From assembly GCA_905199855.1 (NCBI GenBank), contig CAJKHY010000003.1, positions 6,823-70,822 of the forward strand: a stretch of DNA of 64,000 nt. The letters are read 5' to 3'. Source of the DNA: an uncultured Clostridium sp. (lineage in GTDB: Bacteria > Bacillota_I > Bacilli_A > RF39 > UBA660). The position numbers were made by a program, and so were the translations under genes. Shown piece after piece: positions 1,845-51,223 of the stretch. Position 1 is the first letter of the stretch; each line of letters begins with the position of its first letter. A model generated the notes under the pieces. It was not told the DNA's origin. It saw nothing but the letters and a program-made list of their open reading frames with translations, and ran no database searches.

Positions 1845-3302
1845 TTAAATAGTTAATTTTCTTGTATATGCTTTTGAACTTGTACTGCAGTTGGTGTTTT
1901 CTTCAATATTACTGAATTGTTCATCTAATTTTGCTTGTTCTTTTTCAGTTAATCTATATAATGAGTTTGCTCTTTCAAGATCTGACATGATTAGATTAAC
2001 TGCATTTTCCATTGAGTATTCAATATCTAACATTAGGTATTTGCTATGTTCATAGTTTTCTGGATTTGTGTTAGCTGGTGCTCCTTTAGATGCGTTGTAA
2101 TTTAATATCGAATTATCTATTTCTCCTAATGTATTTGTATACTCAACAACTGTATCTTCAGGTAATAATTGAACGGCAACTTGAGCAACATCTAATAAGA
2201 TAAATTGTACTTGGTTTGATACTGATGTCGTTCCTAAAGAGGCTACTTCTAATTCTCTTACTTCATTGATAGTTAAATTCATTTTGTTAGCAAGTTCTTC
2301 GTAACTTGGTATTTTATTTAATTCTTTGATTAGTCCTTGTCTTACTTTTAAGTAGTTCTTTACATTGTCTTTTTGGACTGGATTATTTGGATAAACAATT
2401 GTCTCGGCAATTGATCTTACAAAATCATAAGATTCTCCCAATGCTTCTTCTTTATCTTTTTCATATGATGCAGATACAACACTTTGTATTCTATCAGCAA
2501 AGTAACTATATACTATTCTATCTTTGTCATCCATGATATATTTAGCATAGATACTTGTTCCATTTGATGGATTGCTTCCTTTAATTTTGTGATTAAATGA
2601 TAAATAATTTACTGATGGAATAGTTAACTCTTGTAGTATTGTTTCATAATCTTCAGCAAAATCCAACCAATAATCGTGGCTATATACATCTATTTGCTCT
2701 AGTGTTAAACCATTGATAAAGCCTAATTGAATTAATACTTCATCGTCATTTAATACAATTCCTGTTGCTAATTCAATATCATTTTTAAAGTTTTCAAGGT
2801 TGTTTTTGATAAATTCTAGTTTCTCTGCTGGAAGAAATGTATTTAACTTATCTTCAACTATAGGTGCAAATGAAGGTGCTGGAGTATTTTCAATTTCATA
2901 ATTTATTTTGTTTTCATTTGCAACAAGTGCATTCTCATCAATAGAGGTTTCTATATTTGACTTTTCTGTTCTTGTCCCTTTAATATCATTTAATATTGAT
3001 TTTGCCAAAGAAACAATACCATAACCCGCTAAAGTAACTGCAACAGTTCCCGCTAAAGCGAGAGAAGTTATTTTTACAAAATTGTTTTTTCTTTGTATTG
3101 TATAACATACTTCTGCTCTTTGGTCTCTTGGTTTTTTTCTTTCACTTATTTCTATATTTCTTAGAATATCATCTAAGTCTTCAGGATCTATATATTTTGT
3201 TGTTGAATTGATTGGTGTTTTTGATTTTTCGTTAGCAAAAACTCCAATTCTTAATTCATTTTCCTTATCATAATAAGGTCTTATAATTTTTCCATTTTTC
3301 AT
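1845..3302 (-). CDS. hypothetical membrane protein (ORF-A); N-terminal cytoplasmic ~75 aa, one TM, large C-terminal domain; possible anti-sigma-factor-like architecture
   Basis: 485 aa ORF. TM segment VKITSLALAGTVAVTLAGYGIV. The N-terminus MKNGKIIRPYYDKENELRIGVF weakly resembles RsgI-N-type anti-sigma domains. The internal segment YLKVRQGLIKELNKIPSYEELANKMNLTINEVRELEV resembles sigma-70 region 3. Own consensus promoter. Confidence 0.5.
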   Translation of the reverse strand: MKNGKIIRPYYDKENELRIGVFANEKSKTPINSTTKYIDPEDLDDILRNIEISERKKPRDQRAEVCYTIQRKNNFVKITSLALAGTVAVTLAGYGIVSLAKSILNDIKGTRTEKSNIETSIDENALVANENKINYEIENTPAPSFAPIVEDKLNTFLPAEKLEFIKNNLENFKNDIELATGIVLNDDEVLIQLGFINGLTLEQIDVYSHDYWLDFAEDYETILQELTIPSVNYLSFNHKIKGSNPSNGTSIYAKYIMDDKDRIVYSYFADRIQSVVSASYEKDKEEALGESYDFVRSIAETIVYPNNPVQKDNVKNYLKVRQGLIKELNKIPSYEELANKMNLTINEVRELEVASLGTTSVSNQVQFILLDVAQVAVQLLPEDTVVEYTNTLGEIDNSILNYNASKGAPANTNPENYEHSKYLMLDIEYSMENAVNLIMSDLERANSLYRLTEKEQAKLDEQFSNIEENTNCSTSSKAYTRKLTI

Positions 3303-3963: not shown

Positions 3964-4497
3964 TCAAAATATTTTATTTAGAAGTTCTTTTACTAAAAAT
4001 TTGTATTCTACCTCATCTTGATTTTCGTTATCTAATAGGCATAGTGGGGGAAACAAAACACACCACCAATTGTCTCCTTTACCATCACCAAGTGTTATTA
4101 CTAAAGATTCATAATAACCGTCATTATATGTAATACCTTTATATTGTTTCTTAGGAAAATAATTTTGTCCATATTTAATGGTATAATCAATGTTATAATT
4201 TTTATCTTTTATTGTTTTATCTATTTCTTTTTTTAAATTATCTAAGTTATTTTGAATGGTATTTCTTGCATCGTTGATATTATTTAAGTCAATTAGGTTA
4301 TTTGCTATGTAGCTTTCAATAGTATTTTTTATTACTTGTTTTTGGGTTTGGTCTTCAATTGTGTTACTGTTTGATATTACTCTTAATCTTATTGCTGTAT
4401 CAGGGATAACGATATTATCTTTATTATTTGTGCTATCATATGCGATAAATGTTATAGTTATTGCTATAATTATTAGTATTTTTTTAATAATTATCAC
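3964..4497 (-). CDS. spoIIR: stage II sporulation protein R (SpoIIR)
   Basis: N-terminal signal/TM; IRLRVISNSNTIEDQ motif and C-terminal NWWCVLFPPLCL typical of SpoIIR; located next to prmC-prfA as in B. subtilis. Confidence 0.7.
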   Translation of the reverse strand: MIIIKKILIIIAITITFIAYDSTNNKDNIVIPDTAIRLRVISNSNTIEDQTQKQVIKNTIESYIANNLIDLNNINDARNTIQNNLDNLKKEIDKTIKDKNYNIDYTIKYGQNYFPKKQYKGITYNDGYYESLVITLGDGKGDNWWCVLFPPLCLLDNENQDEVEYKFLVKELLNKIF

Positions 4498-5328: not shown

Positions 5329-6379
5329 TTCCTTCTAAGGCTCTTTTCTGATTTTCGTTTATTAAGGCATCAATTATGATTCCTAATTCACCATCCATGA
5401 TGCGATCTAGATTCATTGATGTAAATCCAATTCGATGGTCGGTTACTCTATTTTGAGGGTAATTATAGGTTCTTATTTTTTCTGAGCGATCGCCAGTTCC
5501 TATTTTAATTCTTCTTTCAGCACTTTCTTTTTCTTCGTTTTCTTTTAATTTCAAGTCATATAATCTTGTTTTTAAGATTTTCATGGCTTTTTCTTTGTTT
5601 TTGATTTGGCTTCTTTCTGTTTGGGAATAAACAATGATACCTGTTGGGATATGGGTTAATCTTACTGCTGAGTCAGTTGTGTTTACGCCTTGTCCTCCAC
5701 AGCCACTTGAACGGGTGATATCTACTCGTACTTCTGATTCATCTAATTCAAAATCAAATTCTTCAGCTTCTGGCATGACTAAAACGGTTGCTGTTGAAGT
5801 ATGAACACGGCCTTGAGATTCGGTTTCTGGTACTCTTTGAACACGATGCGAACCACTTTCAAACTTTAATTTAGAATATGCTCCTTCTCCTTTAATCATA
5901 AATTCTATTTGGGCATATCCTCCAGCCGAACCTTCAACACTGTTTAAGATTTCACTTTTCCAACCATAGTTGGCTATATATTTTTGGTACATGTCATATA
6001 AATCGCCTGCGAAAATGTTGGCTTCATCTCCTCCTGCGGCTCCACGAATTTCTATGATAACATTCTTTTCATCATTAGGATCGTGTGGTAGTAATAAGAT
6101 TTCTAATTCTTTTTCAGTTTTGTTTTTTTCTTCTTCTAATCTAATTAATTCTTCTTTAGCAAACTCTCCTAATTCTTTATCGTGGATTAGTTCTTTACTT
6201 TCTTTGATATCATTTAATATTTTTTTATATTTGAGATATAGTTCTACTGTTTCTTTTAATCTTACTTGTTCTTTTGATAATTCGGTCATTTTTTTAATAT
6301 CTTTTAATACTTCTTCGCTTGATAGTAGGGAAGTTGTTTCGTCATATCTTTCTTTGATTTTTTCTAATCTTTCAATCAT
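5318..6379 (-). CDS. prfA: peptide chain release factor 1
   Basis: GGQ motif (SGCGGQGVNTTDSAVRLTHIPTGI) and RF1-type PxT region (RVQRVPETESQGR). Confidence 0.9.
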   Translation of the reverse strand: MIERLEKIKERYDETTSLLSSEEVLKDIKKMTELSKEQVRLKETVELYLKYKKILNDIKESKELIHDKELGEFAKEELIRLEEEKNKTEKELEILLLPHDPNDEKNVIIEIRGAAGGDEANIFAGDLYDMYQKYIANYGWKSEILNSVEGSAGGYAQIEFMIKGEGAYSKLKFESGSHRVQRVPETESQGRVHTSTATVLVMPEAEEFDFELDESEVRVDITRSSGCGGQGVNTTDSAVRLTHIPTGIIVYSQTERSQIKNKEKAMKILKTRLYDLKLKENEEKESAERRIKIGTGDRSEKIRTYNYPQNRVTDHRIGFTSMNLDRIMDGELGIIIDALINENQKRALEGNDK

Positions 6380-9018: not shown

Positions 9019-10989
9019 GTGATTAAAATGTTTAAGAAAATTTTTAAATATATTAAATTTTCTGTTATTTTGGTTGTTTTTGGGATAATTGCTTTTTTTA
9101 GTTTATATATTTATGCTTTGGTTACACCTAAACCTGACATTAATAAGGCTAGAAGTTATTATTTATATGATAAGGATAGTAATCTTGTTTTTAATAATAA
9201 TGATGAATGGATAAGTTTAGATAATATTAGTGACTATTTAATTGATGCGACAATTTATACTGAGGATAAGAAGTTTTATAAGCATAGTGGTTTTGATTTT
9301 TTGAGAATTATTAAGGCTGTTTATGTTAATTTGTTATCTGGTAGTAAGAAGGAAGGTGCATCTACGATTACCCAGCAATATGCTAGGAATTTGTTTTTGA
9401 ATTTTGATAAGACTTGGAAAAGAAAATTTGATGAGGCTAAGCTTGCTTTGGAATTGGAATGCCACTACAAAAAGGAGGAGATTTTGGAAGGGTATTTGAA
9501 TACTATTAATTATGGTGGAGTTTTTGGAATTGAGAATGCTTCTAAGTACTATTTTGGTAAAAGTGCTAGTGAACTTAATTTAGCGGAGGCTTCGATGTTA
9601 GCAGGTATTCCTAAATCTCCTAGTACTTATTCTCCTTTGATAAATCCTTTGAAAGCTAAGAAGAGGCAAGGTTTAATTCTTTCGATTTTACTTAAAAATA
9701 AGGTTATTAGTGAGAATGATTATAATGCGGCTTTAAATTATGAACTCGTTTTTAAGAGTTTTGAGGATGAAGATGGTTTAAATGCTGTGATGTATTATCA
9801 GGATGCGGTTATTAATGAACTTAAGAAGATAGAGTCAATTCCTAATTCTTTACTTGAAACTGGTGGTTTAAAGATTTATACTACTTTGGATAAGGATGCT
9901 CAAAAATACTTGGAGAATGCTACAAATAAGTATATTAATAAGGATAGTGAGTTGCAATCTTCTTCTATTATGATGGATCCTAATACGGGTGAAGTTTTGG
10001 CTTTAATGGGTGGAGTTGATTATAATAAGAGTCAATTTAATCGCGCTACGTCGGCAGTTAGGCAAGTAGGTTCTACGATGAAACCATTTTTATATTATGC
10101 GGCTTTGGAGAACGGTTTTACTGCTTCTAGTGCTTTTATAAGTGAAAGAACGACTTTTACTTTTTCAGGTAACAAGACTTATTCACCAAAAAATTATAAT
10201 GATAGATATCCTAATAAGCAAATATCTTTAGGTGCTGCGATTTCTTATTCCGACAATGTTTATGCTGTTAAAACACATTTGTTTTTGGGGGAAGATGTGC
10301 TTGTGGATATGGCTAAAAGGGTTGGAATAAGTGGTAATTTAGAAGCTATTCCTTCTTTGGCTCTTGGTAGTGAAGAGATTAGTATGATAGATATGGTTGG
10401 TGGATATGCTTGTTTTGCTAATGAGGGTTACAAGGTTAAGCCACATTTTATTAGGAAGGTGTTGGATAGTAAGGGTAATGTTATTTATGAGTATAATAAT
10501 GTTAAAGAGGGTGTTCTTAATAGGAGTATTGTATTTATTTTAAATGAGTTAATGACTTCAACTTATGATACGGCTTTTATTGATTATAATTATCCTACAA
10601 TTATTAGTTTACTTCCTGATATGACCCACAAATACGCGGTTAAAACGGGGACAACGGATACTGATGTGTGGATAATTGGTTATAATAAGAATGTTGTTTT
10701 GGGGGTATGGAATGGTTTTGATGATAATCGAGTAATGTCTAAAGAAGATTCTGGTAAGCATAAGAAGATATGGGTTGAGGCAATAGAAAATTATTTAAAA
10801 GATACGGATAAAAATACGGAATGGTATGATATTCCTAGTAATGTTGTGGGAGTTTTAGTTAATCCAATTACTGGTGAGCCTGTAAATGAGGCTAGTAAGA
10901 ATAGTAAGATATTTTATTTTATTAAAGGAACTGAACCATATTACAATAATGTTGATTTAGATACGGTTTTCAAACAGGAAAATAATTAG
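9019..10989 (+). CDS. bifunctional class A penicillin-binding protein (glycosyltransferase GT51 + transpeptidase)
   Basis: N-terminal TM anchor; GT51 motifs EDKKFYKHSGFD and GASTITQQYARNLFL; transpeptidase SxxK-type region (QVGSTMKP). Alternative ATG at 9028 with a better RBS. Confidence 0.8.
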   Translation: MIKMFKKIFKYIKFSVILVVFGIIAFFSLYIYALVTPKPDINKARSYYLYDKDSNLVFNNNDEWISLDNISDYLIDATIYTEDKKFYKHSGFDFLRIIKAVYVNLLSGSKKEGASTITQQYARNLFLNFDKTWKRKFDEAKLALELECHYKKEEILEGYLNTINYGGVFGIENASKYYFGKSASELNLAEASMLAGIPKSPSTYSPLINPLKAKKRQGLILSILLKNKVISENDYNAALNYELVFKSFEDEDGLNAVMYYQDAVINELKKIESIPNSLLETGGLKIYTTLDKDAQKYLENATNKYINKDSELQSSSIMMDPNTGEVLALMGGVDYNKSQFNRATSAVRQVGSTMKPFLYYAALENGFTASSAFISERTTFTFSGNKTYSPKNYNDRYPNKQISLGAAISYSDNVYAVKTHLFLGEDVLVDMAKRVGISGNLEAIPSLALGSEEISMIDMVGGYACFANEGYKVKPHFIRKVLDSKGNVIYEYNNVKEGVLNRSIVFILNELMTSTYDTAFIDYNYPTIISLLPDMTHKYAVKTGTTDTDVWIIGYNKNVVLGVWNGFDDNRVMSKEDSGKHKKIWVEAIENYLKDTDKNTEWYDIPSNVVGVLVNPITGEPVNEASKNSKIFYFIKGTEPYYNNVDLDTVFKQENN

Positions 10990-11360: not shown

Positions 11361-13238
11361 TTATTTTTTTTGAATTTTTATTATAAATTGATATTCGTTA
11401 GGTAAATCTAATTCGTCTACATCAACAATGTAACCTGATGCTTCTAAGTTATCTATTAGTTGTCTACTCATATTTAAGGCATTCCTTAAATAGTATGGAG
11501 AATATTCTTGTTTTGCTTGTGGTTGTTCTTCAAACGAAGGTGCCCCCTCTGTATTAAATTCTGGCAAGAATGGTTCTTCAATTTTTGATGGTTGAATGTT
11601 TGGTTGTGTTTCAACTGGAGAGGATACAAAAGTTGGATTATTGTTTTGTAGCGAAGGTTGAGTTGATGCTGTGATGCTTTCTTGAGTTGCAACTGGTTGA
11701 ATATTATTTACTGTTTCTTCTTGGGGTACGAACTGAGGTGTTATATTGTTTGAAATATTCTCTGGAGTTTGTTCAATTTTTTGGTTAGGTTCTAAATTAA
11801 TGTTTGAAATTGTTGGTTCTATTTTTGGTGTTTGAACACTTGGAATGTCATTTGTAGTTGGAGTTTGAATTGTATTTAAGTTAGGTAATGGCATCGTATT
11901 TTCAATAGATGATGTAGGCATTGGGGTAATATTTGATGCCATGGTTTCTGGAGTTGGCATTTCCCAAGTATTTATTGGATTATTTAAGTTTAGTTCTTGG
12001 TAAGATTCTGTAGGAGTTGCAATATTAACTTCTGGATGTGGTGTTTCTTTAGCCCCTTGTATATTTATTTGTTCAGGTTGATTTTGAAAATTATTTGGTA
12101 CTGCAGGTTGTGGTGTTGGTTCTACTAGAGTTGAATTTAATTCCGGCATATTAAATATAGGGGTAGGATTTATAGTTTGTGATGTTACTTCAGGGGTTTG
12201 TTCATTATTTACAGTATCAGGCATGTTTATTCTTTCTATATTAATTGGTTGTGGAGTTTGTGGTTGCATAGGTAAAGGCATTTCGACATTTTTTGCAGGT
12301 TCCATAAAGTTAGAGCCTGTGTTCATGTTTGTGCTTTCATCTTCTAGTGATGTGAAAAATTTGCCTGCGAATGAAAATTTTGGTTTTTCAACAGGTTGTT
12401 CTTGTTTTGGCATACTTTCATCTACTTTTAATAAATTGTTGATATCTGCAGTTTGCTCTTGATGATTTATATCTTGGGCTGATGCTTTAATTGCATCAAT
12501 GTTAATCATTTGTGTTTTATCCATTTTATCCTCCACTATTTCTGGTTCAACATCATCGAACGTATTTGATTTTTTATTTACTATATCAAGTCCTGATAGA
12601 ACTTTTTGCATATTAGGATTAATATCCATTTCCTCTACTTGTTCTTTGTTTTCTTTAATTATATCTTGGACTTGTTTAACTGTTAATCTTTCTTTTTTGA
12701 TTCTTTCTAGCATTGCATTTTCTTCCTGTTCATTTTCTAATTGAAGTAATGCTTTAGCATGTCCTTCGCTAATTTCATTATTTTGTAAAGCTTCTTGGAC
12801 ATTTTTACTTAATTTTAATAGTTTCATTTTGTTATTTATTTCTTTTTCTTCTTTAGACATTAAATTGGCTATTTCTTTAGTGTTACTATTTCCCGCTAGA
12901 TTTTGATAAGCTTTGGCTTCTTCAATTGGAGTAAGACTTTGTCTTTGAAGATTTTCAACGATGGCTAGTTCGGCACTTGCTTGGTCATTTATTTCCATAA
13001 TAATAGCTGGTACTTGGGTTAAACCTACTAAAGAGGCGGCTTTTAATCTTCGTTCACCTGCGATTACTTCATAACCATTAGGTATTTTTCTTAGAATAAG
13101 GGGTTCTATTATCCCATATTTTTTTATAGAGTTTGCCAATTCTTGTAGTGCTTTCTCATCAAATTTAATACGTGGTTGAAAACGGTTAGGTTTTATTTCA
13201 GTAATGTTTATTTGTTTTATTTCATTACTTTGTTGCAT
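11361..13238 (-). CDS. parB: ParB/Spo0J-family partition protein with a long low-complexity insertion
   Basis: ParB N-terminal domain with the IAGERRLKA motif and HTH. Then ~350 aa rich in P/T/N/Q, then a short C-terminal domain. Start set at MQQSNEIK with AAGGAGGG RBS; the ORF track extends to 13313. Confidence 0.75.
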   Translation of the reverse strand: MQQSNEIKQINITEIKPNRFQPRIKFDEKALQELANSIKKYGIIEPLILRKIPNGYEVIAGERRLKAASLVGLTQVPAIIMEINDQASAELAIVENLQRQSLTPIEEAKAYQNLAGNSNTKEIANLMSKEEKEINNKMKLLKLSKNVQEALQNNEISEGHAKALLQLENEQEENAMLERIKKERLTVKQVQDIIKENKEQVEEMDINPNMQKVLSGLDIVNKKSNTFDDVEPEIVEDKMDKTQMINIDAIKASAQDINHQEQTADINNLLKVDESMPKQEQPVEKPKFSFAGKFFTSLEDESTNMNTGSNFMEPAKNVEMPLPMQPQTPQPINIERINMPDTVNNEQTPEVTSQTINPTPIFNMPELNSTLVEPTPQPAVPNNFQNQPEQINIQGAKETPHPEVNIATPTESYQELNLNNPINTWEMPTPETMASNITPMPTSSIENTMPLPNLNTIQTPTTNDIPSVQTPKIEPTISNINLEPNQKIEQTPENISNNITPQFVPQEETVNNIQPVATQESITASTQPSLQNNNPTFVSSPVETQPNIQPSKIEEPFLPEFNTEGAPSFEEQPQAKQEYSPYYLRNALNMSRQLIDNLEASGYIVDVDELDLPNEYQFIIKIQKK

Positions 13239-13371
13239 AAAAAATCCCTCCTTATTCTTTTTTCTTACCCTTATGATATAATAATACACTAAGAAAAGGA
13301 AAAATTCAATCATTTTTTGTCGAAATAATATAAAAAAAATTAGAATTTTATGTTAATCTAACTTTTTTTAT

Positions 13372-24283: not shown

Positions 24284-24599
24284 TATTACACCTCCAAAGT
24301 TCTTTTTTTAATATAAAATGCTATTTTATTATATAGGTGTTTTATTTTAAAGTCAATAAAAATTTTTATTTTGTCTATTTTTTTGTTATGATACAAGTTA
24401 TTTATAGTTGATATTGACATTAGCAAATAATGTCTTTTTTTATTAGAATGTTGTATCCTAAATAAGGTATGTTTCTATTTTTTAACTAAATTTTTCTTGT
24501 GATAACGGCGTAGCAAAGGCATAAGAAAATTAAAATTGGTGTTTTAAAAATTATAGTTTTGGTGTATAATGGTTTTAAGAATAGAATTTGGGTGATTAT

Positions 24600-26366
24600 A
24601 TGTTTAAGAGGATACTTGCTATTAGTAAGAATTATGCTTTTGTAGAGATAGATAATTTAATGAGTGAAGATTTGCTTAATTATTATGTTATTTTTGTCGA
24701 TGATGATAAGAAGTTTCTTGGCGAGGTTAATGAGGTAGATGGTAATAGGGTTAAGATTACTTTTTTAGGCGAATTTATTAATGATAAGTTTGTTAGTGGT
24801 ATTATTAGAAAACCTAGTTTGACTTCTAATATTAGAATTATTAACAATATTGAGCTCGATGAGTTAATGGGGACTGTTAATGATAAGAATATGGTTCTTG
24901 GTTTATCTCCTTTATATAATGATCATCCAATTAATATAGATATTAATAGTATGTTTAGTAACCATAGTTCAATATTTGGTAACACAGGAAGTGGTAAAAC
25001 ATATGGGGTTGCTAGAATTTATCAGTCTTTGTTTGATAGAAATGATATTATTCCTTTTAATGCTAATATTTTTATATTTAATTCAACTAATGAGTATCAT
25101 AATTCTTTTTCTTCTATTAATAAGTTTAATATTAATTATAATTATAAGATGTATACGACTAATACTAATAATAAGGATAGTTTAATTATTAAGTTGCCTC
25201 TTTGGCATTTAACTGTTGATGATTATGCTAATTTACTTGATGTTTACGAATATTCACAGATTAATATTATAGAGAAGATGTTATCCTATGTATGTGCTTT
25301 TGCTAAGAATGATGAGTATTCAATAAGATATAAGAATCATTTGATAGCTTCTGCAATTATATCAGTTATGTATACGAATCAAACGGCTTTTAGGATAAGG
25401 GATCAAATATTTAATATTCTTAGTACTTGCAGTACAAAAGATTTAAATTTGGATTATGAAATTCCTGGTGTTGGATATACTAGAACTTTTAGAAAATGTT
25501 TTGATATTGATAGTCAAGGAGAATTTGTTGAGCGATTACTTGTTTCTAAATATGTGGAACAGTTTGTTGATAATAATACGAAATGGAATGAAGATTATAC
25601 TCCCATTTATTATACTTTAGAGGATTTAGAGATAGCTTTAAACTTTACTTTGATTAGTGAAGGATTACTTTTAAATGAAAAATATTATGCGGAGGCGATT
25701 GCTTTAAAAGTAAAGTTGCATTCTATTATTAATAGTTCTTATCATAAATTTTTTGATTATAATAGATTTGTTAGTTTGACTGAGTTTATTACTGATATCG
25801 TGGTTAATAAAGAAAATAAAAGATGTCAAATAATTAATTTTGTCTTAGAAGATGTGGATGATAGATTTGCTAAGGCTTTAACTAAGATTTATTCAAGATT
25901 ATTTTTTAAGTTTGCTAGAAGTTTGCCTCAGCGTGGGACATTTCCTATGCATATTTTATTGGAAGAAGCCCACAGATATGTGCAAAACGATGCAGATACT
26001 AGGACTTTAGGTTATAATATTTTTGAGAGAATTGCTAAGGAAGGTAGAAAATATGGGGTAATTTTAGATTTGGTTACTCAAAGGCCTACGGAATTATCCG
26101 AATCAGTTATTTCTCAGTGTAGTAACTTTTTGATTTTTAAGATTAATCACCCAACTGATTTAGATTATATTGGTAAAATGGTTCCTAATATTACGGATGA
26201 TATAATTGAAAAGCAAAAAAGTTTGCAGTCTGGGATATGCGTAGCGTTTGGCAAGATGATGAAGTTACCTATGATAGTTAAGATGAAACTTCCTAATCCT
26301 CCTCCTAGCTCCGCGAATGCTGATGTATATGATAAATGGATGTTTAATTTAAAAGGTAGATATTAA
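24600..26366 (+). CDS. HerA/DUF87-family ATPase (HAS-barrel + RecA-like hexameric ATPase), standalone
   Basis: Walker A GNTGSGKTYG; Walker B/catalytic ILLEEAHRY; HerA-type C-terminal block GRKYGVILDLVTQRPTELSESVISQCSNFLIFKINHPTDLDYI; ~125-aa N-terminal barrel-like region. Confidence 0.7.
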   Translation: MFKRILAISKNYAFVEIDNLMSEDLLNYYVIFVDDDKKFLGEVNEVDGNRVKITFLGEFINDKFVSGIIRKPSLTSNIRIINNIELDELMGTVNDKNMVLGLSPLYNDHPINIDINSMFSNHSSIFGNTGSGKTYGVARIYQSLFDRNDIIPFNANIFIFNSTNEYHNSFSSINKFNINYNYKMYTTNTNNKDSLIIKLPLWHLTVDDYANLLDVYEYSQINIIEKMLSYVCAFAKNDEYSIRYKNHLIASAIISVMYTNQTAFRIRDQIFNILSTCSTKDLNLDYEIPGVGYTRTFRKCFDIDSQGEFVERLLVSKYVEQFVDNNTKWNEDYTPIYYTLEDLEIALNFTLISEGLLLNEKYYAEAIALKVKLHSIINSSYHKFFDYNRFVSLTEFITDIVVNKENKRCQIINFVLEDVDDRFAKALTKIYSRLFFKFARSLPQRGTFPMHILLEEAHRYVQNDADTRTLGYNIFERIAKEGRKYGVILDLVTQRPTELSESVISQCSNFLIFKINHPTDLDYIGKMVPNITDDIIEKQKSLQSGICVAFGKMMKLPMIVKMKLPNPPPSSANADVYDKWMFNLKGRY

Positions 26367-26389: not shown

Positions 26390-26735
26390 ATGAAAAAAGA
26401 GTTATCCACAGTAAAATGTGGAATAAATTTTCTATTTGTTGTCTAATTGTGTAAAAATTTGACACATTTTTGGTACTAAATACAAGAAAAAAGAAAAGTT
26501 ATCCACATAACGAATAAGTTATCCACATGTGAGGATGGGTGTTGATAATAATATACACATAAAATTTTTTTTGTGTAAATTTGTGGAAAAAAGAAGAAAT
26601 CCTTATAAAATATATAAAATATAAGTGGAATTTTGTGTGGAAAAACTGAGGATAGTTAGTATTTTTTAAAAAAATTCTTTTCATTTTCCACATTATAGTG
26701 TAAAATATAGATAGAAATCCAAAAAATAAGGAGTA
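26390..26735. promoter_or_regulatory. oriC upstream DnaA-box cluster and dnaA promoter region
   Basis: Perfect TTATCCACA boxes at 26404, 26507 and 26525. Near-consensus boxes TGTGGAAtA, TGTGGAAAA (x2) and TTTTCCACA. TTGACA promoter at 26459. Confidence 0.85.
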
Positions 26736-28094: not shown

Positions 28095-28226
28095 CTTGTG
28101 TAAAGTTATTTGACATTATGCACAAGAAAAAATGTTAAAAACACTTATAAAATAAGAGATAGTAAAGTTATCCACAGTTATCCACAATATAATCATTAAT
28201 AAAAAAATAAAGAAAGAAGGTATATT
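28095..28226. promoter_or_regulatory. oriC downstream part: two tandem DnaA boxes plus an AT-rich putative unwinding region between dnaA and dnaN
   Basis: TTATCCACAgTTATCCACA at 28168-28186, preceded by ~70 bp of >80% AT. Confidence 0.8.
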
Positions 28227-29339
28227 ATGAAATTTATTATCAAGAAAGAATATTTAATTGAGGGGTTAAATAATGTTTCAAAGGCTATTTCTTCAAAAAA
28301 TTTAATTCCTATATTAGCTGGGATAAAATTTGAGTTAAAAAAAGATGGACTTTATTTAAGTGCTAGTGATACTGATATTTCTATACAGTCATTTATTAGT
28401 AATGAAAAAATTAGTGAAGTAATTGAGTTAGGTAGTATTGTTATATATGGAAAGTATATTGTGGAGATAATTAGAAAGTTACCTAATGTGGATATATCTA
28501 TTGAAGTTTTAGATGGTTTTAAAATGTTGATTACTACAGATAATTCTTCATTTAATTTAAATGGGATAAATCCTAATGAATTTCCTAATTTATATTTAGA
28601 AGAAACTAAGGAACCAATTGTTTTGAAGAATAGTGAGCTAAAGGCTTTAATTAATAAGGTAGCATTTGCTACTTCACCTAGTGAGAGTAGACCAATTTTA
28701 ACTGGGATTAATTTTATTATAAATGGTGATAATTTGGAAGTTCTTGCTACTGATTCATATCGTTTGGCTAAATATAGCATAAATATTGATAAATTTAATA
28801 GTAATTCAGTTAATTTAGTAATACCATGTAGAAATTTATTAGAATTGATTAAAATTATTGATGATAATGGAGAAATTGAGATGCATTTATTTAACAATAA
28901 GGTGTTATTTAAATATAAAAATATTTTATTTCAGTCAAGGTTATTAAGTGGAACTTATCCTACTAATTCTAGTGTTATTCCTTCAAATTTTGAAATCCAA
29001 ATAGATGTTGATGTTAATGTGCTATATGAGATGATAGATCGTGCAAGTTTGTTAACTAGTGATAAGGATAAAAATACAATTAAGTTAATGCTTAATAAAA
29101 ATGAATTAGTAATTTTATCAAATAGTCCTGAAATAGGAAAGGTTGAAGAAAAACTTAGTTTAGTAACAGATAAGGAAATTGACATATCATTTAGTTCTAA
29201 ATATATGATGGAGGCTTTAAGAAGTTTTGAAGCTGAAACTGTTACTATTTGTATGAATAATGATATTTCTCCAATTGTTATCAAATCAACAGATGATAAT
29301 AATTTAGTTCAATTATTATTACCAATTAAGACATATTAG
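28227..29339 (+). CDS. dnaN: DNA polymerase III beta sliding clamp
   Basis: 370 aa, three-domain DnaN pattern, conserved position. Confidence 0.9.
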   Translation: MKFIIKKEYLIEGLNNVSKAISSKNLIPILAGIKFELKKDGLYLSASDTDISIQSFISNEKISEVIELGSIVIYGKYIVEIIRKLPNVDISIEVLDGFKMLITTDNSSFNLNGINPNEFPNLYLEETKEPIVLKNSELKALINKVAFATSPSESRPILTGINFIINGDNLEVLATDSYRLAKYSINIDKFNSNSVNLVIPCRNLLELIKIIDDNGEIEMHLFNNKVLFKYKNILFQSRLLSGTYPTNSSVIPSNFEIQIDVDVNVLYEMIDRASLLTSDKDKNTIKLMLNKNELVILSNSPEIGKVEEKLSLVTDKEIDISFSSKYMMEALRSFEAETVTICMNNDISPIVIKSTDDNNLVQLLLPIKTY

Positions 29340-29366
29340 TTGAATTTAGGCCGAAAAAGTTAATTT

Positions 29367-29393
29367 TTTGGTTTTTTTCGACAAAATTCGACA
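29367..29393. promoter_or_regulatory. three direct repeats TTCGACAAAA/TTCGACAAAA/TTCGACAATA at 10-bp phasing; each contains the reverse complement of the Spo0A box TGTCGAA
   Basis: Seen directly at 29367-73, 29377-83 and 29387-93; ~70 bp upstream of the comK-like start, right after the dnaN terminator hairpin. Confidence 0.5.
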
Positions 29394-29462
29394 AAATTCG
29401 ACAATATGTGTGTGTTAAAGTACAAGCCATATATATTTATATATATGTTTGGAGGTGATATA

Positions 29463-29930
29463 ATGGATTATTTTATTACGCAAGAGACATTACTTATTAT
29501 GCCAATTACGAAAACACAGACTAAGATATTAGAAAATGATAATGTCATGTTTGTTGATTCTAAAACATTCAAAATTGTAAATGATAATTGTAAGTTATAT
29601 GGAAGTACTTATTTGAATAGAGTAGAGTTTAGTAAAACAATACTTAAGTGTAGATGCAAAATGCCTATAATTTTAGATAATGATGGAAATATAATACTTT
29701 TTCCAACAACTTCTAAGCGTCAAGAACATTGTGCATGGTTAAATTATAATAATATTAAGTCTTATAAAGAACAGGGTTCAAAAAACGTAGTTGTTACCTT
29801 TTTAAATGGTATTAAGATTGTTATTAATATGTCATATTATACATTTGAGCACCAAATAAATAAATGTCATAGATTAAAATTGGATTATTTGGAAAAAAAA
29901 GTTTCAATTGTATACAAAAATGCCAGATAA
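29463..29930 (+). CDS. comK: ComK-family competence transcription factor-like protein
   Basis: Blocks IILFPTTSKRQEHCAWL and VVVTFLNGIKIVINMSYYTFEHQI align with B. subtilis ComK IFLFPTLSSTRPQCGWI and TEVTFSNGKTMELPISYNSFENQV; GGAGGTG RBS. Confidence 0.65.
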   Translation: MDYFITQETLLIMPITKTQTKILENDNVMFVDSKTFKIVNDNCKLYGSTYLNRVEFSKTILKCRCKMPIILDNDGNIILFPTTSKRQEHCAWLNYNNIKSYKEQGSKNVVVTFLNGIKIVINMSYYTFEHQINKCHRLKLDYLEKKVSIVYKNAR

Positions 29931-29949
29931 AACTGGCATTTTTTTTTTA
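29922..29949 (+). terminator. rho-independent terminator after the comK-like gene
   Basis: GCCAG-ataaaa-CTGGC followed by a T-run of 10. Confidence 0.6.
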
Positions 29950-30033
29950 TATGTGATATAATTTATGTGGGTATGATTAGGGATACTAAGTAATTAGAAA
30001 AGGTGAAAAAATGAGCAAAAAATATAATTTAAA

Positions 30034-33077
<3,044 letters not shown>

Positions 33078-39476: not shown

Positions 39477-39665
39477 ATGTTAAAAAAAATATTTAAATTA
39501 GTTAAAAAGATTGTTGTATCTGGTTTGGTAATATATGCTTATAATGTGTTGGCTACTCCTATAAATGCGACAATTCCAATTAATTTTATAACACTTTTTA
39601 CAGTGGCAATATTAGGTATGCCATGTTTAGCAGGTTTTATAATTTTGATGCTTATTTTTTATTAA
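39477..39665 (+). CDS. small membrane protein, BofA-like (pro-sigma-K processing inhibitor) by position and shape
   Basis: 62 aa, two TM helices, …ILGMPCLAGFIILML C-terminus; follows recR as bofA does in B. subtilis. Confidence 0.4.
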   Translation: MLKKIFKLVKKIVVSGLVIYAYNVLATPINATIPINFITLFTVAILGMPCLAGFIILMLIFY

Positions 39666-50684: not shown

Positions 50685-50797
50685 TAAAAATATTTGGTAT
50701 ATATAATTTATCATATATTTCTTTTTTTTTCAATACAATATAATAAAAAAATAAAAAATTCATATAATTTTCTTGTAAAGTGGAAAAAGGTGATAAA

Positions 50798-51223
50798 ATG
50801 ATTGTTAAGTATAATCAAAAGGAATTAGAGTTACTAGCTAGGTTAATGAGAGCTGAGGCACTGGGAGAAGGCAATCTTGGGATGTTAATGGTTGGTAATG
50901 TTGTTGTTAATAGGACAATTGCTGATTGTTTGATTTTTAAAGATATTCGTTCTTTAACTGATGCAATTTATCAAAATCCAGGTGGTTTTTCAGGTACTAG
51001 TAGTAGTCTTTTTACTGGGAATCCTACAGTTTTGGAAAAAGATTTGGCTCAAAGAGTAATACGTGGTGAATATTATTATCCTGCGACAAATGCTTTATGG
51101 TTTTATGCTCCTGCGAAAGGAACAAAATGTGGTAGTTCGTGGTGGGAGCAGGACTTTGCTGGGAGATATAAAAATCATTGTTTTTATAAACCTGATGCGG
51201 GTGTGTGTAAAGAACTTCACTAA
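50798..51223 (+). CDS. SleB/CwlJ-family cell wall hydrolase (Hydrolase_2 domain)
   Basis: LLARLMRAEALGEGNLGMLMVGNVVVNR signature; start at MIVKYNQ with AAAGGTGA RBS. Confidence 0.7.
   Translation: MIVKYNQKELELLARLMRAEALGEGNLGMLMVGNVVVNRTIADCLIFKDIRSLTDAIYQNPGGFSGTSSSLFTGNPTVLEKDLAQRVIRGEYYYPATNALWFYAPAKGTKCGSSWWEQDFAGRYKNHCFYKPDAGVCKELH

Follow-up and report, generated by a model that had tools for sequence, protein, structure and literature searches.

The sequence analysed here, called the window, is a 64-kb stretch of contig CAJKHY010000003.1 from an uncultured Clostridium sp., with a G+C content of about 27%; all positions are window coordinates. It includes, in this order, rnpA (minus strand), a herA-like gene, dnaA, dnaN, a comK-family open reading frame (ORF), recF, gyrB and gyrA. 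The comK-family ORF is the sole gene between the end of dnaN and the start of recF (Table 1). The usual occupant of this slot, as known from yaaA/rlbA of B. subtilis, is a small gene whose protein is unrelated to ComK, and no S4-like ORF was found between dnaN and recF in the window.

Comparison of this ORF with the Pfam ComK profile PF06338 gave an E value of 1.2e-34 and 119.7 bits (cut-off 22.3) over profile positions 3-146 of 152, and alignment with B. subtilis ComK showed 30% identity over 146 amino acids (E=5e-27). The reading of 155 amino acids starts at an ATG six bases past the sequence GGAGGTG, while a mechanical ORF call extends upstream to 29406. The alignment ends at residue 157 of B. 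subtilis ComK, the window protein stops about 10 amino acids later, and the last ~35 residues are absent. The C-terminal tail of B. subtilis ComK includes the motif FMLYPK, by means of which MecA delivers ComK to ClpCP. The window protein has no such tail and can be considered a member of a short subfamily, its membership in the ComK family being unaffected. The AlphaFold2 model (predicted local distance difference test, pLDDT, 95) shows a LytTR-like fold, an assignment based on similarity to solved LytTR domains that defines a structural class and not a sequence family. No NCBIfam model covers the protein, and a sequence search of the PDB yielded no ComK relative. As judged from profile, alignment and model, the ORF codes for a ComK-family transcription factor.

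The region upstream of comK includes three direct repeats, TTCGACAAAA, TTCGACAAAA and TTCGACAATA, that a repeat search located at an exact 10-bp period. They contain three perfect TTCGACA heptamers within nucleotides 29377-29403, separated by the spacers AAA and AAA. TTCGACA is the reverse complement of TGTCGAA, the consensus of the Spo0A binding site (0A box), and both features of such sites are found here, the core in three perfect copies and the 3-bp spacing of boxes in the same orientation. The 10-mer occurs five times in the 64 kb against 0.27 expected, and the heptamer seven times against 2.5 expected, three of the seven being those at comK; the background frequency of TTCGACA is about 4 in 128 kb of strand. 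Outside the comK array the window has no tandem pair, even when two mismatches are allowed.

A predicted extended -10 element, TGtTAAAGT, follows the array, with a predicted transcription start close to 29428. The sequence 17 bp upstream of it is AAAATT, so that a -35 hexamer is absent at this distance, and the TCGACA of box 2 is located 22 bp upstream of the -10. Two other candidates for the comK promoter, a -35/-10 pair inside the palindrome CATATATAT-tt-ATATATATG and the combination TTTATA-17-TATAAT ending on the start codon, were rejected, as they leave no 5′ untranslated region (UTR). The palindrome, a perfect AT sequence that might serve as an operator or in translation, is kept in L007, L008 and L010 (4963-4986), weaker in L013 and absent in L015; a different hairpin is found at the same place in L027 (~283-310), with a fold z of -4.4 versus -0.9 in the window.

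The array and comK are bounded by two hairpins followed by T-runs, both plausible Rho-independent terminators. The one behind dnaN (hairpin 29348-29374) has a fold energy of -8.7 kcal/mol (z -2.76) and its T-run abuts box 1; an equivalent hairpin and T-run precede the boxes in most relatives. The one behind comK (hairpin 29916-29943) has a fold energy of -13.5 kcal/mol (z -5.0). With the dnaN terminator before it and its own terminator behind, comK is predicted to be a monocistronic unit. An earlier note, made by reading the letters of this DNA, had proposed a ComK-family gene alignable with B. subtilis ComK between dnaN and recF, terminators on both sides, and three repeats in exact 10-bp phase that are the reverse complement of the Spo0A box; the profile search, the pairwise alignment, the gene coordinates, the fold energies and the repeat search bear out each of these proposals.

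Table 1. Coordinates of the features at the dnaN-comK-recF locus and of the sporulation-related genes in the window
Feature	Position	Strand	Basis or remarks
SpoIIR	3964-4497	-	PF09551, E=6e-39; TIGR02837, E=9e-44, 3 bits under the equivalog cut-off
dnaN (DNA polymerase III beta clamp), upstream neighbour	28227..29339	+	Pfam DNA_pol3_beta, _2 and _3 domains
dnaN intrinsic terminator (predicted), 11-bp A/U-rich hairpin and T-run	29348..29378	+	Fold energy; equivalents in most relatives
0A box 1, TTCGACA (TGTCGAA on the minus strand), ~-51 to -45 of the predicted promoter	29377..29383	+	Conserved in relatives
0A box 2, TTCGACA, ~-41 to -35	29387..29393	+	Position retained in both single-box relatives
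0A box 3, TTCGACA, ~-31 to -25	29397..29403	+	Repeat search, lineage layout
Predicted extended -10, TGtTAAAGT	29413..29421	+	Read from sequence; lineage layout
Palindrome in the predicted comK 5′ UTR, directly before the ribosome-binding site	29428..29447	+	Inverted repeat
Shine-Dalgarno sequence GGAGGTG	29451..29457	+	Sequence; invariant in close relatives
comK-family gene, 155 amino acids, short form	29463..29930	+	PF06338, pairwise alignment, AlphaFold2 model
comK intrinsic terminator (predicted), 11-bp stem overlapping the stop codon and T-run	29916..29949	+	Conserved in L010, L013
recF promoter (predicted), extended -10 TGaTATAAT, separate from comK	29954..29962	+	Conserved in L010, L013
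10-codon upstream ORF overlapping the recF start codon, out of frame	30011..30043	+	Sequence; same in L010, L013
recF, downstream neighbour	30034..31149	+	Pfam SMC_N
BofA, 62 amino acids, directly after recR	39477-39665	+	PF07441, E=5.5e-10
Small cell-wall hydrolase, SleB/CwlJ type	50780-51223	+	Pfam Hydrolase_2, E=7.5e-15

Relatives of the locus were collected by protein similarity alone and represent 11 lineages (identities given here are MAFFT figures; those from phmmer are 1-3 points higher). The order dnaN-comK-recF is found in all ten lineages with readable flanks, the remaining one (P0110, 33% identity) being on a 548-nt contig, L144, that is too short to show neighbours. No additional gene was called between dnaN and recF in the relatives checked. 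The closest ComK proteins, 88% and 86% identical to that of the window, are those of L007, L008 and L009 (Clostridium sp. CAG:762), followed by P0007 (45%), P0008 (42%), P0009 (41%), P0010 (38%), and P0012 and P0016 (36% each), as well as P0050 (35%, a phmmer figure for a protein outside the alignment). An identical ComK is present on many gut-metagenome contigs with the same neighbours. Clostridium sp. CAG:762 was the single match in a scan of genome contigs, and a scan of the Joint Genome Institute (JGI) metagenomes with an alignment of three ComK sequences recovered no relative. Lengths of 145-157 amino acids predominate among the closest relatives. NCBI names such proteins from metagenome-assembled genomes "competence protein ComK" and gives their sources as Tenericutes bacterium, Mycoplasmatota bacterium or Bacilli bacterium; one member of the ComK cluster is carried on a 1.38-Mb contig. 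A long ComK of 188 amino acids, P0022, is located elsewhere and not in the dnaN-recF slot, among neighbours that we take to be Bacillus-like.

Ten of the 11 lineages (the window, L007/L009, L008, L010, L013, L015, L016, L017/L018, L019/L020 and L142/L143) have at least one perfect TTCGACA immediately before comK, always in the same orientation. Three perfect boxes are present in the window, L007/L008/L009 and L017/L018. Other lineages have variants of the array: TTCGACA, aTtGACA and TTCGACA in L010; TTCGACA, TTaGACA and TTCtACA in L013; aTCGACA, TTCGACA and, after 13 bp, a further TTCGACA in L015; aTCGACA and TTCGACA in L142. In the two lineages whose ComK is 86-88% identical, the substitutions within the array are in the 3-bp spacers and none in the cores, a count that is not significant by itself. 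In an alignment of 16 lineages, 13 have a -10-like hexamer that starts 11-12 nt past box 3, in most loci with a TGn in front of it that is less evident in L017 and L110; a -35 hexamer at the canonical distance was found in none. The single box of L016 and that of L019 are at the position of box 2, 20-21 nt upstream of the -10. The dnaN-comK-recF arrangement with its boxes is therefore a conserved feature of the clade and not a private insertion of this genome. The earlier note had described the gene as inserted and its place as unusual, which is correct relative to model organisms and incorrect within the clade, where the arrangement is the rule. It had also asked whether relatives share the arrangement and whether orthologous loci have lost the repeats; they share it, and the repeats are present down to 33% ComK identity, as degenerate copies in L144.

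Metagenomes were also scanned with the pattern TTCGACA-N3-TTCGACA-N3-TTCGACA, using no protein information. At least 120 loci were obtained, of which 21 have less than 32% G+C, and nine of these 21 include a ComK-family ORF 30-55 nt downstream of the array (phmmer E values 1e-17 to 1e-28). All nine have dnaN before the array and seven have recF after comK; of the other two, L099 ends inside comK and L022 continues for about 1 kb past comK with no recF match. Contigs that are long enough show the order dnaA-dnaN-[boxes]-comK-recF-gyrB. The nine loci are distant from the window, with 46-53% identity in DnaN and 27-38% in ComK, and their synteny was not part of the selection. The position inside the dnaA-dnaN-recF-gyrBA cluster is apparently ancient and conserved across an uncultured low-GC clade. 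Many of the matches to the triple pattern consist of minisatellites, (TTCGACATGG)n or (TTCGACACCC)n followed by repeats of the type (GAGCTCACCAACC)n, on contigs of 35-49% G+C (L031, L032, L035, L042, L047, L097, L103, L112 and others). These are unrelated to Spo0A and call for caution in scans based on a motif only. In L101 (34% G+C) a triple array at oriented positions 4194-4220 is followed after 48 nt by a cas10/csm1-like gene (Cas10 palm2, E=1e-17); this may represent a Spo0A-controlled type III CRISPR locus.

Four observations strengthen the identification of Spo0A as the probable binder. The 3-bp spacer fits the published geometry, in which footprinted Spo0A sites consist of two boxes with 3-bp spacing (PMC2731898). 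Direct binding of phosphorylated Spo0A (Spo0A~P) to the B. subtilis comK promoter, PcomK, is known, with three sites that activate and two that repress (PMC3297582). The same array is found upstream of spo0A elsewhere, and genes for sporulation are present in the window. The C. difficile Spo0A recognizes the same core, TGTCGAA, with contacts at G2, C4 and G5 (PMC3485338).

The arrays at spo0A were identified by tblastn of the retrieved loci with a B. subtilis Spo0A query, which placed spo0A downstream of the triple array in L025 and L134, two unrelated Clostridia gut contigs with 60-64% G+C. There, three perfect TGTCGAA with 3-bp spacers are located 130-165 bp upstream of spo0A (1031-1057 in L025; 773-799 in L134, mirrored at 6139-6165). 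The gene spo0A is a classic Spo0A-autoregulated target; the orientation of these two arrays to the gene is opposite to that of the comK array. In L134 the spo0A region seems to be duplicated in inverted orientation. Other triple arrays precede spoVS (L058), the gene for a soluble HisKA/HATPase kinase (L048 and L130), and soj after rsmG (L028).

The sporulation-related genes of the window are those for SpoIIR and BofA, the latter directly after recR, as in B. subtilis. The small hydrolase of the SleB/CwlJ type scored 41.5 bits with the NCBIfam SleB model, far under the cut-off of 236.5 bits; other peptidoglycan genes in the window code for a class A penicillin-binding protein and Mur ligases. 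Field et al. predicted that RF39, RFN20 (CAG-631, CAG-449) and ML615J-28, orders related to Mycoplasmatales, include spore-formers, and stated the presence of spo0A explicitly for the RFN20 families CAG-631 and CAG-449 (PMC10868615). The genome analysed here is not in the supplement of that work.

Taken together, these results lead us to propose, with a probability of about 0.6, that Spo0A~P activates the origin-linked short comK through the three-box array on a promoter that has no -35. Upon nutrient exhaustion Spo0A~P would accumulate and fill the array (~-51 to -25). Because the boxes are 7 bp long and separated by 3 bp, successive bound protomers would be located on one face of the helix, where Spo0A~P could stand in for the missing -35 contact, and comK would be switched on. 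Since the window ComK has no MecA-targeting tail, control is probably exerted mainly at transcription, with Spo0A~P at the array as the main input. The distance of 1.2-3 kb between comK and the DnaA-box clusters would in addition tie the copy number of the gene to replication initiation. The layout suggests that starvation signalling directly switches on DNA uptake. The promoter, the role of Spo0A as binder, the activating sign of its effect and the targets of ComK are inferred.

Several points weigh against the activation of comK by Spo0A~P, or against its role in DNA uptake. The main gap is spo0A itself, whose presence in this genome is suggested indirectly by SpoIIR, BofA and the literature. 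The comK promoter and its transcription start are predictions. L016 and L019 have a single box each and L144 has degenerate boxes only; the perfection of the boxes in the nine loci of the metagenome scan was ascertained by the motif used to select them. Protein bound at box 3, in the spacer region, could hinder RNA polymerase. No late competence genes were found within the 64-kb window, and because of this a competence role for the window ComK can be drawn only from its membership in the family.

Since box 3 (~-31 to -25) is inside the spacer region, the array might also serve the opposite purpose: Spo0A~P would bind but repress a constitutive extended -10 promoter, turning comK off after commitment to sporulation, or the array would act on the nearby origin. 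Extended -10 promoters can work without a -35, and box 3 overlaps the spacer of this one. The B. subtilis PcomK has repressing 0A sites as well (PMC3297582), Spo0A~P at 0A boxes of an origin can block replication initiation (PMC2731898), and only about 1.2 kb separate the array from the pair of DnaA boxes at 28168 and 28178. On the other hand, the boxes keep a strict register with the comK -10 in the different lineages, which favours an effect on comK transcription over one on the origin, and boxes 1 and 2 occupy the same positions as in the Spo0A-activated spoIIG and spoIIE. In abrB the boxes are downstream of the start site and repressing, whereas those of comK are upstream of the -10 and neither over it nor downstream. 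We consider repression, or an effect on the origin, unlikely. A further alternative is that the repeats are the ComK box of this clade, mediating positive feedback by ComK, and that their resemblance to 0A boxes is coincidental. LytTR regulators bind direct repeats and the window ComK is LytTR-like, so that self-binding has to be counted as another point against Spo0A; LytTR sites, however, have a period of ~21 bp and not 10, and the known ComK box consists of AAAA-N5-TTTT dyads with no GC-containing heptamer. Moreover, all seven positions and the 3-bp spacing fit the 0A consensus, and identical arrays precede spo0A, spoVS, kinase and soj genes, including those on contigs of 60-64% G+C, which makes the ComK-box explanation improbable. 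A perfect type-I K-box is not found in the window. As a candidate for a conserved feature upstream of comK the K-box was rejected, the sole AAAA-N5-TTTT nearby being the dnaN terminator hairpin, which is not conserved in L010.

Winged-helix response regulators typically use phased direct repeats in place of a -35, and TGTCGA resembles the WalR half-site TGTWAH, so that a different regulator of 10-bp-phased repeats, for instance of the OmpR/PhoB or WalR type, could also be considered. It would explain less, and is hardly probable: WalR and PhoP sites have an 11-bp period and different cores, no OmpR/PhoB- or WalR-type regulator is encoded nearby in the window, and the exact 0A consensus, together with the arrays upstream of spo0A, is more simply explained by Spo0A. 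The location inside the dnaA-dnaN-recF cluster and the coincidence of TTCGACA with five of the seven bases of the ATCCACA part of the DnaA box might suggest weak DnaA boxes of the origin region or of the dnaA operon. This genome, however, uses the canonical TTATCCACA, with perfect copies at 26402, 26499, 26519, 28168 and 28178; as 9-mers the repeats match it at five of nine positions, with G where DnaA boxes have C, more mismatches than the one or two tolerated for such a box, and their register to the comK -10 is conserved. The DnaA reading is excluded in practice.

Spo0A acting on comK is of a kind known from B. subtilis, where comK is also under the control of CodY, AbrB and DegU and of proteolysis involving MecA, ClpCP and ComS. 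The B. subtilis promoter and the activation proposed here have in common a ComK master regulator, three upstream Spo0A sites read as activating, and a link between starvation signalling and competence (Mirouze et al. 2012, PMC3297582). The sites in PcomK are imperfect, with one or two mismatches, are paired with the repressing sites R1 and R2, and are embedded among ComK boxes and Rok sites (PMC3297582), whereas the window has three perfect boxes in a strict 7+3 array, no -35 and no conserved K-box. The window ComK has no MecA-targeting tail and its gene is at the origin, as opposed to about 1.1 Mb away in B. subtilis. What differs is thus a consensus three-box operator on a promoter with no -35, a tail-less short ComK, the absence of a conserved K-box and a conserved position in the origin cluster; no paper describing comK in the dnaN-recF slot behind such boxes was found in the literature searched.

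The predicted promoter can also be compared with the sigma-A promoters of spoIIG and spoIIE, in which 0A boxes overlap the -35 region and a -35-like hexamer is located ~21-22 bp from the -10, as is the case here from the TCGACA of box 2 to TAAAGT. This spacing implies dependence on an activator. The spoIIG and spoIIE promoters have weak boxes in two separated sites, unlike the three contiguous consensus boxes and extended -10 of the window, and the genes they drive code for sporulation proteins and not for a competence regulator. The 7-bp core with 3-bp spacer is shared with abrB and the autoregulatory boxes of spo0A, and with promoters of phages phi29 and Nf (PMC2731898). With regard to its location, the gene resembles comCDE of Streptococcus pneumoniae, a competence switch near oriC whose position is conserved and whose dosage replication stress could raise (PMC5034851, PMC8394987). 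The regulators are different, ComCDE/ComX there and the ComK family here, the window gene is inside the dnaA-gyrA cluster, and a dosage effect is only proposed for it.

If Spo0A~P activates comK as proposed, natural transformability is predicted for abundant uncultured gut Bacilli, with phosphorylation of Spo0A at starvation as the likely trigger, which bears on gene flow in the gut and on the genetic tractability of these organisms. The locus would provide a minimal natural Spo0A-ComK circuit for the study of the coupling between sporulation and competence. It would also be a second, independent competence master switch beside oriC after the pneumococcal comCDE, making the gene-dosage idea testable in another lineage. 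A wider generalization, doubtful at this point, is that throughout this clade of uncultured gut Bacilli with small genomes comK is wired to two inputs only, Spo0A~P and origin-proximal dosage, the MecA, ComS and Rok layers being absent. In that case the decision to sporulate would always have a ComK-driven state among its early outputs, and this state would also be a read-out of replication stress. Another reading, likewise doubtful, is that the short ComK has been repurposed as a Spo0A-controlled regulator of the neighbouring replication and repair genes (recF, gyrBA) or of the origin, rather than of DNA uptake.

A single perfect copy of TTCGACAAAA is located at 13315-13324 (minus strand), directly against the putative ATG of a noc/parB-like gene that follows rsmG, and the low-GC contig L028 has a full triple array (oriented positions 10212-10238) at the equivalent rsmG-soj junction. 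This suggests a possible Spo0A input into the partition operon. The Noc/ParB-like protein (11361-13313, minus strand) consists of 650 amino acids, with an unannotated C-terminal extension of ~400. A protein of 485 amino acids encoded at 1845-3302 (minus strand) shows a weak match to sigma-70 region 3.

A gene for a HerA/DUF87-type ATPase of 592 amino acids (24588-26366) separates rnpA from the DnaA boxes that precede dnaA; with the NCBIfam anti-phage HerA models the protein scores far under the cut-offs. The gene is present in this species and the 88% relative (L001-L007). In L010, L012 and L017 it is missing, and rpmH-rnpA is found immediately before dnaA. On the other side of comK, recF has no Shine-Dalgarno sequence of its own. 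The upstream ORF that overlaps its start codon is 10-13 codons long among the lineages (5550-5591 in L010, ~2596-2637 in L013) and has its own ribosome-binding site, GGTGA; the offset of 23 nt from its ATG to that of recF is the same in three lineages, an overlap that looks like translational coupling. A conserved GGTTAGGGATAC box is located between the recF promoter and this ORF.

Perfect DnaA-box 9-mers number 16 in the 64 kb, where fewer than one is the estimated expectation, and those with at most one mismatch number 54 versus 25.8 expected. Five of the perfect boxes are at oriC (26402-26527 and 28168-28186) and one is at 10667. Eight copies of TGTGGATAA, all on the plus strand, extend from gyrB to holB (31283, 33146, 35327, 35751, 36073, 36348, 37359 and 39938); three of them are intergenic around the signal recognition particle RNA gene, and the remaining five are translated, four as V-D-N and one as W-I. 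They form a cluster of DnaA boxes on the right-hand side of the origin only.

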